From Candidatus Nomurabacteria bacterium (GTDB lineage Bacteria; Patescibacteriota; Minisyncoccia; Phycocordibacterales; UBA918): a stretch of DNA of 64,000 nt. Shown here piece by piece: positions 51,851 to 54,049 of the stretch. The translations under genes and the position numbers were made by a program. Within the stretch, counting starts at the first letter, position 1, and every line of letters starts with the position of its first letter. The notes under the pieces were generated by a model that did no database searches, was not told the origin of the DNA, and saw nothing but the letters and a program-made list of their open reading frames with translations. Where the stretch lies: positions 6,549 through 70,548 of the forward strand of contig JACKGF010000001.1 in the NCBI GenBank assembly GCA_020632095.1. Reading direction: 5' to 3'.

Positions 51851-52861
51851 ATGAAAACTATCAAGGAAAGAATACCAGATATTAAAACTTTAGAATCACT
51901 ACTTGATGGAGTTATTGAGAGTAGTCTTACTGATTTCTTGCAGTCAACTCATGCTAGAAGGGAAGAGGTGATTGTTAACTTTAAATTAACACTTCTGTCT
52001 TTGTTTTTTTCGATAGCGATATTAATCGGATTGTCTTTCCTTGAGGGTTCACATAAAGATACTATGGTAGAAAAAATCTTGACTGGAAGTTCAGCGGTGT
52101 GGCTGACAGTTGTTTTGTTATCTGGACGACAATGGCTAACTAAGAGTAAATTGTTAGCTCGAGAGATGAATATGGCGTTGGTGCCGATTTTTACTAACAC
52201 TCTCGATAGAATGATGATGTATACCAACGATTCTGAACATAGAGATGATATTAAATCGTTGTTAGAAGAGTCTTCCTTAATGACAATAGAAGAAAAATAC
52301 CAAATTTTTTCTGATGACACTTACACAATTTATGCCGACACTGATATTTTGGTAAGGGAGTTAATGGTAATTAAAGTGGAGAAAAATAGAGATGGTAAAC
52401 TAGATTCAAATACTGTTATTTTTAAAGGTGTGTTAGTGTCAACAACACTCAATCGTAGTAATGAAGCTGAAATATACATCTCTACCGAAGGTGATAAACG
52501 AGGGTTTGCTCATCAAAGTTTTTGGTCAAGGTTAACGGGCTTGTCGGAAGTAAAAGAAACAATCTTAGAGTGGAACGACTTTGAAAAAGATTTACATGTT
52601 GCTACTACTAATCCTACTGCCGCGCGAGAAATTCTGACTCCAGAATTCATGCAAGACTTACACGCTTGGTGGAGTGAACATAAGTTAAACATCCGTATTG
52701 CTTTTAAGGGAAATAAGATGTATATGCTTTTACCTGAGGAATCTATTAAGATAGATTCTACCACCACTTCAACCAAACTGCCCGCTATAAAACGTTACGC
52801 TTGGTCACTATTGCGGCCAATTTGGCGCAGTTTGGTCTTAATCGAAGATGTGTCAAAATAG
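51851..52861 (+). CDS. hypothetical membrane protein (2 TM)
   Basis: ORF directly after htpX. No known motif. Confidence 0.5.
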   Translation: MKTIKERIPDIKTLESLLDGVIESSLTDFLQSTHARREEVIVNFKLTLLSLFFSIAILIGLSFLEGSHKDTMVEKILTGSSAVWLTVVLLSGRQWLTKSKLLAREMNMALVPIFTNTLDRMMMYTNDSEHRDDIKSLLEESSLMTIEEKYQIFSDDTYTIYADTDILVRELMVIKVEKNRDGKLDSNTVIFKGVLVSTTLNRSNEAEIYISTEGDKRGFAHQSFWSRLTGLSEVKETILEWNDFEKDLHVATTNPTAAREILTPEFMQDLHAWWSEHKLNIRIAFKGNKMYMLLPEESIKIDSTTTSTKLPAIKRYAWSLLRPIWRSLVLIEDVSK

Positions 52862-52935
52862 TGTTCGTGGTAATATTCATTGCTGTAAATCTCTAAAATA
52901 GATTTATCTGTAGAATAAACACGATTATATAAAAC

Positions 52936-53025
52936 GGAGAGATGGCAGAGTGGTCGAATGCGCATCCTTGGAAAGGATGTATACGAGCAATCGTATCGGG
53001 GGTTCGAATCCCCCTTTCTCCGCCA
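52936..53025 (+). tRNA. tRNA-Ser (anticodon GGA), CCA encoded
   Basis: Cloverleaf: acceptor GGAGAGA/TTTCTCC, D-stem GCA/TGC, anticodon stem CATCC/GGATG with loop TTGGAAA, a long variable arm ATACGA-gcaa-TCGTAT, T-arm GGGGG-TTCGAAT-CCCCC, discriminator G, then CCA. Confidence 0.85.
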
Positions 53026-53061
53026 AGACAAAATAGCGTTTACAACGCATATTTTGTTGGT

Positions 53062-53195
53062 GGAGAAAGAGTAAAGCGCGGGGCGCTTTACGTGGGGATT
53101 CGAAGCTGTTGCCAGCTAGATTATGAACGGAGTGAAATAATCTAGCGACAACGGATACTGGTTGTGTAACAACCGAAATTCCCCCTTTCTCCGCA
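53062..53195 (+). ncRNA. structured tRNA-like element of unknown identity (pseudo-tRNA, att-site remnant or ncRNA)
   Basis: The perfect 7-bp stem GGAGAAA/TTTCTCC closes three internal hairpins: GTAAAGCGC-gggg-GCGCTTTAC, GCTAGATTAT-13nt-ATAATCTAGC and GGTTG-tgtaa-CAACC. The 3' end ATTCCCCCTTTCTCCGCA duplicates the 3' end of the adjacent tRNA-Ser. A GGGGATTCGAA T-loop-like segment is present. Confidence 0.3.
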
Positions 53196-53746
53196 TCTTA
53201 AGGCTAGCACGAGACACGTGTCTGGTGCTGGTTTTAAATATGAGACTCTGATATGATTAAATCTTGGAACCCGCTCACACTGACCCCGGAGGATACTATG
53301 AGCACAGTACCTGAAAGTCTCGAACAAATTTTGGAGAACTGGAAACCAAAGTGGTACTACCGCTGGTTTCCGTTTCTGCCAAGGTTTGTAAACAATAAGT
53401 CATTGCGACTCTTTAGCGTCTCGTGGCGCGACTGTAGCTATACAGAGAAAGCGTTTGGTAAACCGCATCTGCTTGACTTGTTGGTCGCGAACCACAAAAC
53501 ACCTTGGTACTTGCCAAAACTGGCAGGATTCCAGATTTGGTATTAGCCACTTCCCGCACTTCGATATATCTGTCGGCGTGCGGGAAAACTTTTGCGCACG
53601 AGACACTATCAAACCAGAATCTGAAAGGTGGTTAATTGGTCAAGCAGGGCTTGGCATCACATGGTTCCAACTCGAAACACTCCACATCATCGAACCAACA
53701 CGAGACGCCTTGTCTCATACTAACTTTGCTATACTACCCACAACAT

Positions 53747-54049
53747 ATGGAACTACTCACTAATCAATCAGGTCAAATATTAGTCGGTATTGTGGTTGTA
53801 ATAAATATAATCGCTTTCCTAGTTATGGCTCATGATAAGCGTAAGGCTATTCAGGGGCACAGCGAACGCCGCACTCCTGAAGGATTGGTTTTCTTTATGG
53901 CTGTTATGTTTGGTGGTGTTGGTGTGTACCTAGGTATGCAAGTTTTTCGTCACAAAACCCGAATCTGGTACTTTCAACTTGGTATTCCTTTACTTATCCT
54001 GCAAAATTTTGCTACCATCTATGTAGTAGGGAGGTTGGTTGCGGGTTAG
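53747..54049 (+). CDS. DUF1294-family small membrane protein
   Basis: AHDKRKAIQGHSERRTPEGLVFFMAVMFGGVGVYLGMQVFRHKTR matches the DUF1294 signature. The start is placed at ATG 53747. Confidence 0.55.
   Translation: MELLTNQSGQILVGIVVVINIIAFLVMAHDKRKAIQGHSERRTPEGLVFFMAVMFGGVGVYLGMQVFRHKTRIWYFQLGIPLLILQNFATIYVVGRLVAG

Follow-up and report, generated by a model that had tools for sequence, protein, structure and literature searches.

An RtT-like trailer element with a tRNA-like fold behind tRNA-Ser(GGA) in a Parcubacteria genome

The tRNA-Ser(GGA) locus and its trailer element

The stretch analysed here, called the window, comprises 64,000 nucleotides (nt) of contig JACKGF010000001.1 from Candidatus Nomurabacteria bacterium (assembly GCA_020632095.1, positions 6,549 to 70,548 of the forward strand). 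It is ordinary chromosome of the Parcubacteria within the Candidate Phyla Radiation (CPR) and encodes, among others, arginyl-tRNA synthetase (ArgRS), GroEL and RNase J. At positions 52936..53025 of the window lies a tRNA-Ser(GGA) gene with an encoded CCA end, which is called by ARAGORN and scores 58.1 bits with the Rfam tRNA model; beyond it, neither ARAGORN nor Rfam detects a tRNA or tmRNA anywhere in the 64 kb. The tRNA gene is followed on the same strand, after a spacer of 36 nt, by the 134-nt element that is the subject of this work (53062..53195; 141.5 bits with R1, our covariance model of the element). We term this kind of element the type A unit. Unless stated otherwise, all features described below are on the plus strand. 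The spacer contains the trailer hairpin ACAAAATAGCGTT-TAC-AACGCATATTTTGT (53028..53057), which is terminator-like on both strands. The G+C content is 46-47% over 53000-53800 compared to about 31-40% in the flanks. The segment bounded by the repeats described below contains no open reading frame (ORF), and a sigma-70-type scan, which may not fit CPR promoters, detected no promoter-like site.

The element is strongly folded. Its folding energy amounts to -52.1 kcal/mol compared to -34.1 +/- 3.6 for shuffled sequences (z = -5.0), and none of 200 shuffles folded equally well. It is closed by helix P1, whose acceptor-5'-like strand GGAGAAAG (53062..53069) pairs with 53185-53192, a pairing supported by covariation. 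The initial annotation of this DNA, made from the letters alone, had proposed a 134-nt element 36 nt behind tRNA-Ser, closed by GGAGAAA/TTTCTCC and containing three hairpins and a T-loop-like segment. All these parts were found again, with the closing stem extended to 8 bp (GGAGAAAG/CTTTCTCC). Hairpin hp1 (53071..53091) has a 9-bp stem (53071-53079/53083-53091) and occupies the position of the tRNA-Ser variable arm. It is followed by the 5' strand of helix P3, GGGGATTC, which corresponds to the 5' half of the T stem plus half of the T loop, and by the junction GAAG (53094..53105); both are identical in every type A copy and in the related type B copies introduced below. The T-loop-like segment GGGGATTCGAA is located here, at 53094-53104. 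The former T loop accommodates hp2 (53106..53154), a long bipartite hairpin with paired changes among homologues, which is composed of an outer CTGTTG/CAACGG helix, an inner 10-bp helix (53115-53124/53137-53146) and a loop with GGAGTGAAAT. Next come the junction ATACT and hp3 (GGTTGT-GTA-ACAACC; together 53155..53174) with a stem of 5-6 bp (53160-53165/53169-53174); junction and loop are conserved and the stem covaries. The element ends with the 3' strand of P3, the 3' strand of P1, the discriminator G and CA (53175..53195).

This last segment is a copy of the tRNA 3' end. The source is the part of tRNA-Ser(GGA) that extends from the T loop to the discriminator, and the copy is exact over 15 nt (53180-53194), which substantiates the duplication first proposed for this locus. 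Within the 64 kb, the 15-mer TCCCCCTTTCTCCGC has exactly two copies, 171 nt apart (53009-53023 and 53180-53194), against a chance expectation of 0.07 matches; two copies were present in none of 100 shuffles. In addition, an inverted copy of this tRNA end makes up the 5' part of the element (TTGGTGGAGAAAG...GGGGATTCGAA), a feature absent from the initial annotation. Hence, the end of the tRNA, the spacer hairpin and the start of the element form one long palindrome.

This palindrome spans 53014-53069 with 21-nt arms. Two related loci, L137 and L139, show the same mirror arrangement, and visual inspection suggests it for the alphaproteobacterial locus L032 as well. Fold-back copying, tRNA-primed copying and convergent selection are candidates for its origin. 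A primer-binding site was also considered, since TGGTGGAGAAAG complements the tRNA 3' end including CCA. It is not supported: the complementarity to CCA is absent in L122 and L123, the homologues described below, and in the alphaproteobacterial units.

The anatomy of the fold is that of a reduced tRNA. P1 (8 bp) and P3 (GGGGAUUC/GAAUCCCC, 8 bp) have one uninterrupted 3' strand in common, just like the acceptor and T stems of a tRNA. Hairpin hp1 leaves the 5' strand at the point where the D, anticodon and variable arms exit in tRNA, hp2 and hp3 occupy the former T loop, and both D arm and anticodon arm are missing. On genuine tRNA-Ser genes, R1 yields weak matches of 9-17 bits. In those alignments that were displayed with the region resolved, hp1 falls onto the variable arm, P3 onto the T arm and the 3' strand of P1 onto the acceptor strand. 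Because of these alignments, the element is best described as a tRNA-Ser derivative stripped of its D and anticodon arms, which retains acceptor-like and T-stem-like helices and a variable-arm-like hairpin and carries insertions in an expanded T loop.

Known identities were excluded. No Rfam family reaches its threshold on the element, and at E <= 10 only noise and tRNA-driven matches appear; thus, the Rfam scan suggested at the outset leaves it unclaimed. A functional tRNA can be ruled out, as ARAGORN and RF00005 call only 52936-53025 and the element is devoid of D and anticodon arms. The initial view that it is not a tmRNA and has no tag-peptide frame holds: ARAGORN reports no tmRNA, and the tmRNA_permuted model reaches 14.3 bits compared to a gathering threshold of 47, at a position over the tRNA end. 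A tag or peptide reading was rejected because the ORFs in the hp2 loop (MNGVK-stop in the window, MSL-stop in L122) are not conserved.

Homologues, covariation and unit turnover

A pattern scan of metagenome contigs uncovered type A elements in two other organisms (L122 and L123), in each case behind their own tRNA-Ser(GGA), which is 84-88% identical to that of the window. The genes flanking the L122 tRNA show 29-55% protein identity to window genes located 7 kb away. Type A is therewith found in three different gene neighbourhoods. In both homologues, the spacer between tRNA and element measures 16-19 nt and contains no terminator, and a hairpin follows the element; in L122, a second, diverged unit is located in tandem behind that hairpin. 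The copy of the tRNA tail comprises 21-22 nt in L122 and L123. Thus, the comparison with relatives, which had been recommended for the duplicated tRNA end, reveals that some of them carry it.

The helices are maintained by paired changes. RNAalifold, applied to the window, L122 and L123, yields 51 predicted pairs, and in 22 of these both sides have changed. Two further units were detected independently by R1: the second one of L122 (26.2 bits, E = 3e-5) and that of L139, a syntenic locus (24.6 bits, E = 1e-5). In the four-sequence alignment, 96.1% of the cells pair and 26 of the 51 pairs exhibit double changes; five covariation measures were computed, none of which was reached by any of 500 shuffles. 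When the partners are slid by 1-3 columns, just 1-4 double-change pairs remain. Double changes affect seven of nine pairs in hp1, 12 of 18 in hp2, four of six in hp3 and two of eight in P1. In P1, 90.6% of the cells are paired across the homologues, and the helix tracks the local tRNA: the window has CTTTCTCC in both tRNA and element, matched by GGAGAAAG, and L122 and L123 have CTCTCTCC/GGAGAGAG. Where P1 has A-U in the window and G-C in L122/L123, the 5' strand compensates a window-specific C-to-T change in the tail. The unpaired junctions GU-GGGGAUUCGAAG and RUACU and the GUA loop are invariant, and 49 of 51 pairs are Watson-Crick pairs. On this comparative evidence, type A is a conserved family whose predicted helices have been kept through double changes in other organisms.

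Syntenic loci were collected via homologues of the upstream DUF3137 gene, and in all of them the order DUF3137 then tRNA-Ser(GGA) is kept. What follows the tRNA varies. L139 has a trailer hairpin like that of the window and then a type B unit. This hairpin has a further homologue in L122, between the two units there. The type B unit of L139 is homologous to the second L122 unit, with four compensatory pairs between them; P1 is degenerate in type B. L137 displays a hairpin and then a type C unit, which has the same P1/P3 frame with other hairpins (z = -4.1). No unit is present at the syntenic loci L142, L146 and L147, nor at L134, a non-syntenic tRNA-Ser(GGA) locus. Since relatives carry type A, B or C or none, the position can be regarded as a hotspot where units of the same architecture with different interiors come and go. 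Nine independent metagenome contigs with DUF3137 homologues (L124, L135, L136, L138, L140, L141 and L143-L145) stop inside or at tRNA-Ser(GGA). This is a repeat signature: Assemblies are expected to break there if repeats follow the tRNA.

A separate observation concerns the 5' side of the tRNA gene. At about 247-264, L123 contains an 18-nt fragment of the tRNA-Ser 5' end (GGAGAGATGGCAGAGTGG) and a hairpin, 113 nt upstream of the intact tRNA-Ser. The fragment lies behind a copy of promoter-like sequence and resembles the outcome of a duplication or insertion on the 5' side of this tRNA.

Comparison with RtT and other tRNA-linked systems

The closest known counterpart of type A is RtT from Escherichia coli. 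RtT has so far been treated as an enterobacterial curiosity; to our knowledge, the repeats behind tyrT, known for decades and with only sparse literature matches, have no accepted function or origin, and we know of no report of an RtT-like element in the CPR phylum. The E. coli tyrT-tyrV locus contains four RtT units (RF00391, 133-137 bits) with a period of 178 nt. Every unit terminates with a copy of the final ~19 nt of tRNA-Tyr, to which GGGGAAGGA pairs as the closing strand, and carries its interior as an insertion in a duplicated T arm. One of the four, annotated as the small RNA RttR (171 nt), overlaps the tiny tpr ORF.

RtT and type A share several features. Both are situated directly downstream of a class II tRNA gene, i.e. 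one with a long variable arm, on the same strand. In both, the final segment copies the tRNA 3' end from the T loop onward, a 5' segment complementary to this copy closes the structure, and the interior is inserted within the T-arm copy. The spacing of repeats is similar, measuring 178 nt for E. coli, 171 nt for the window and 149-198 nt for CPR relatives. Two units in tandem are seen in L122; in the window, a single intact unit is accompanied by a decayed third tail. The differences concern the partner, tRNA-Tyr of an enterobacterium versus tRNA-Ser of a CPR bacterium, and the fold. Whereas type A has acceptor-like and T-stem-like helices and a variable-arm-like hairpin, the 5' segment of RtT pairs with the 3' strand of the T stem and part of the acceptor strand, leaving a free CACCACCA tail. 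By its architecture, the element belongs to one kind with RtT.

Further loci of this layout were found across phyla in a genome scan with a 26-mer from the tRNA 5' end, which is conserved across phyla and not lineage-specific. Six to seven of 102 analysable loci have tRNA-Ser trailers of the shared layout (L032, L116, L015, L068, L037 and L114), 5-6 of them from uncultured Alphaproteobacteria and one from a planctomycete metagenome-assembled genome; the alphaproteobacterial ones originate from gut and rumen. Their units measure 120-268 nt, and the parts found behind the tRNA are, in this order, a terminator hairpin, a degenerate inverted tail copy, a GGATTCGAAG-like motif, an interior of 100-250 nt with hairpins and a direct tail copy with CCA. 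Partner tRNA (Ser) and order of parts are the same as in type A; by contrast, the interiors cannot be aligned with type A, and R1 does not match them. L032 carries two tandem 181-nt units, and RF00391 matches there over its full length with 25.4 bits (E = 0.0099 in a 521-nt search). Several short motifs recur, all of them too short to prove homology: GAGUGA in types A and B and in L015/L068, GAGCGAAGCGAA in L123 and L032, GCGAAGC in RtT, L032, L123 and L137, and CGAAGC(G) in L015/L068. We know of no description of the tRNA-Ser units of these Alphaproteobacteria and the planctomycete, which are apparently undescribed. L015 and L068 have in addition an internal terminator-like hairpin.

Other systems resemble the element in part. 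The Xanthomonas RNA sX4 (RF02223) comprises tRNA-Ser plus a trailer whose G-rich downstream segment base-pairs with the T-stem-3'/acceptor strand of the tRNA. Its model yields sub-threshold matches at all of these tRNA-Ser loci, extending over the tRNA into the first part of the unit, with 23.7 bits in the window (52934-53103) and 37 bits in L137 and L139; these scores are far under the gathering threshold of 70 and tRNA-driven, and the model lacks the body of the element. In Northern blots, sX4 was visible as a band of 280-300 nt, where 156 nt had been expected (PMC3300014). A tRNA together with one trailer unit would be consistent with this size. With attL/attR sites, the locus has in common the direct repeat of the tRNA 3' end from the T loop and the serial accretion of modules at one tRNA. 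It differs from them in that no integrase is among the 47 ORFs scanned, the unit measures only about 150-170 bp and the interior is a covarying fold instead of cargo genes. The tRNA-like domain of tmRNA and mascRNA-type RNAs share with the element the stack of acceptor and T stem without anticodon arm, and the release by RNase P and 3' processing that we infer for it. However, the element has neither a tag frame nor the alanine identity pair, and its T loop is replaced by a three-way junction. Integron attC sites keep their structure without keeping their sequence and mark the 3' end of every cassette in an array beside an integrase gene. Of this, conservation of structure and an array-like locus are seen here; an integrase and R'/R'' core sites are not.

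Interpretation and the neighbouring cassette

In the best reading, the type A element, known to date from Parcubacteria, belongs as a single unit to a modular array that is attached to tRNA-Ser(GGA) at its 3' end. With moderate confidence, we regard the element as an RtT-like tRNA-trailer module of a new sequence family, probably co-transcribed with the tRNA and then processed out. Transcription with tRNA-Ser in one precursor would be expected because the 16-19-nt spacers in L122 and L123 have no terminator, a terminator follows the unit and no promoter-like site is found. Due to its acceptor/T-stem structure and its mimicry of the tRNA 3' end, the element may be cut by the tRNA-processing enzymes, with predicted RNase P cleavage at G53062 and 3' trimming at G53193. 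By analogy with the rtT RNA released from the tyrT transcript, the product would be a stable RNA of about 132 nt. Recombination between the repeated tRNA tails would allow arrays to grow, shrink and swap units. The released RNA could act as a decoy or regulator for proteins that bind tRNA-Ser, or its release could simply be a harmless route to remove an inserted module. The detection of Xanthomonas sX4 by Northern blotting indicates that a comparable trailer, tRNA-Ser plus trailer, is transcribed, and counts in favour of a processed tRNA trailer.

Several observations weigh against this interpretation. The terminator-like hairpin between tRNA and element in the window means that read-through may be low, and the T loop, which tRNA enzymes use at the elbow, is destroyed in the element. 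Furthermore, the element is dispensable: Three of the six syntenic DUF3137-tRNA-Ser loci have no unit and two others have units of different types. The comparison is based on only three full type A sequences and one degenerate copy, with the alignment (A2) fitted to the model. Similarity is mosaic, as the window is closest to L123 in hp1 and to L122 in hp2, and L122 equals L123 in hp3. Therefore, part of the seemingly compensatory signal may reflect replacement or recombination of whole hairpins rather than stepwise compensation. The strand count gives 3 G.U versus 1 A.C cells and does not discriminate between the strands. Lastly, RF00391 (gathering threshold 45 bits) has no match at E <= 10 on window positions 52700-53700, L122, L123, L137 or L139, and R1 has none on E. 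coli RtT or the alphaproteobacterial units. As the models do not cross-match, the link to RtT is an architectural one and not a demonstrated homology. Having the architectural features of RtT yet falling outside the Rfam RtT model, the element constitutes a new family within a kind that is known but little understood.

The sequence behind the element bears on whether the units are mobile. Directly adjacent and outside the fold is a GC-rich cassette of 0.5 kb (53196..53678), a neighbouring module with homologous segments in other CPR genomes. It contains a hairpin or terminator (53207-53230) and carries a tryptophan-rich ORF of 82 amino acids (53298-53546). From the tail copy of the element onward (53180-53678), the DNA is 81% identical to L125-L130, where the cassette is located directly behind a real tRNA-Ser(TGA) in a different gene neighbourhood; the similarity resumes at about 53716-53745. 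L132 has tandem copies of the cassette that end in a pseudo tRNA tail. The 82-amino-acid ORF is genuinely coding, as evidenced by third-codon-position bias (e.g. 13/9/32) and by four clusters of homologues with 67-88% identity; its product matches no Pfam or PHROG family, and structure prediction, with a pLDDT of 42, gives no usable model. Altogether, the cassette looks like a small module travelling between tRNA-Ser 3' ends. At its end, junction alignment uncovered a decayed third copy of the tRNA tail (GGTTCCAACTCGAAACACTCCACATCA, 53663-53689), which is absent from the initial annotation, and then a second copy of the junction/hairpin motif (CATCATCGAACCAACACGAGACGCCTTGTCTC; the whole feature at 53663..53715). 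CATCATCGAACCAACACGAGACGCCTTGTCTC resembles the sequence right behind the real tRNAs of L142 and L125. The tail copies and the cassette thus define the locus as an array with the order tRNA - hairpin - type A unit - tail - ORF cassette - decayed tail.

Such an array would also arise if the element were a small non-autonomous mobile or recombination module, the main rival reading and a possible but less likely explanation. Its fold would then operate at the DNA level and rebuild a double-stranded tRNA-gene target from the inverted and direct tail copies, and a recombinase provided in trans would insert modules serially. Integron attC sites and CTX-phage attP are known to be targeted as folded single-stranded DNA. 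This explanation would account for the three tRNA tails, each with a hairpin behind it, and for the cassette found behind the tail of the element here, behind a real tRNA-Ser(TGA) elsewhere and in tandem in L132. Likewise, it agrees with the alternation of types A, B, C or none in syntenic relatives, the occurrence of type A in three neighbourhoods and the many contigs broken at tRNA-Ser(GGA). Identity to the tRNA begins in the T loop, where integrases that target tRNA genes usually cross over, and 49 Watson-Crick pairs out of 51 suit DNA as well as RNA. On the other hand, none of the 47 window ORFs scanned in the 64 kb encodes an integrase, transposase, reverse transcriptase or recombinase domain, and neither phage genomes (blastn, distant mode) nor viral contigs (pattern scan) contain a match. 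In addition, 150-170 bp are very short for a circular intermediate, the fold, multi-branched and with conserved nucleotides at its junctions, does not resemble the folded att sites known so far, and in E. coli the counterpart is known, from the RttR annotation, to be a processed RNA.

The remaining explanations are disfavoured by the pattern of conservation. It is improbable that the element is an inert scar, i.e. attL/attR of an almost wholly deleted tRNA-Ser integrative element with incidental hairpins. A direct repeat of the tRNA 3' end from the T loop and other insertions at the locus would be expected from it. However, an interior of 130 nt has been kept where proteins are only 29-55% identical, the junctions are invariant, every helix shows paired changes, the 5' strand compensates the window-specific C-to-T change in the tail, tandem units exist and the fold has a z of -5. 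An excision scar was among the first proposals for this locus. The part of it that stands is that modules appear to have been added serially at the tRNA 3' end, as three tails and the cassette suggest; a dead scar does not stand, since the element is conserved with compensatory changes. Still less probable is a decaying tRNA-Ser duplicate, even though acceptor, variable-arm-like and T-stem parts are retained and E. coli tyrT/tyrV are tandem tRNA duplicates with such units between them. Instead of drifting, the stems are maintained and the inserted hairpins conserved, copies that have truly decayed look different (third tail 53663-53689, P1 of type B), and neither ARAGORN nor the Rfam tRNA model calls the element. 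From the pseudo-tRNA with a T-loop insertion proposed initially, the tRNA-like anatomy and the insertion survive and the decaying pseudogene is abandoned. A minus-strand RNA product ending in ...UUCGAAUCCCC-hairpin-CUUUCUCCACCA just before the bidirectional hairpin is the least probable, because its ACCA tail in the window has no CCA-like equivalent in L122, L123, L139 or the alphaproteobacterial units, the direct tail copy (GCCA in several lineages) is on the plus strand and the 16-19-nt spacers with a terminator after the unit fit plus-strand co-transcription, notwithstanding that nearly all pairs are Watson-Crick, that both strands fold and that the trailer hairpin is terminator-like in both directions.

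A broader proposal goes beyond the RtT-like trailer module and is quite speculative; we would sooner doubt than assert it. Genes for serine and tyrosine tRNAs, which have long variable arms, might serve across bacterial phyla, CPR included, as docking points for arrays of RtT-like units and short ORF cassettes that end in a tRNA tail. The tRNA-like fold would be the working part. It would act either as a single-stranded, folded recombination site mimicking the tRNA-gene target, within an integron-like cassette system attached to a tRNA gene, or as an insulator cleavable by RNase P that allows removal of inserted modules from the tRNA precursor. E. coli RtT would be one local case of a widespread, hitherto unrecognised class.

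With RtT-type constructions in CPR bacteria, Alphaproteobacteria and a planctomycete, an oddity of a single organism becomes a comparative problem. With many independent families, three questions can be addressed: the parts under constraint, the RNA nature of the units and their mobility. The CPR gain a conserved structured non-coding element where few are known, and tRNA-Ser loci are flagged as hotspots of small-module turnover that break metagenome assemblies. No new principle emerges; an old unexplained object is generalised and made accessible to comparative and biochemical testing.

Two minor observations pertain to the cassette region. The octamer CACGAGAC occurs four times within 500 nt, at 53209, 53417 (reverse complement), 53597 and 53699. 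Two of the four copies are located in hairpins behind tRNA-tail copies, and the same junctions in L125 and L142 carry the motif, which could be a protein-binding or terminator motif. Moreover, the DUF1294 gene, listed as 53636-54049 with a TTG start at 53636, more likely starts at ATG 53747, since the preceding stretch belongs to the cassette and tail; a conserved TATACTAACTT..CTATAC, also present in L125, precedes this start codon.

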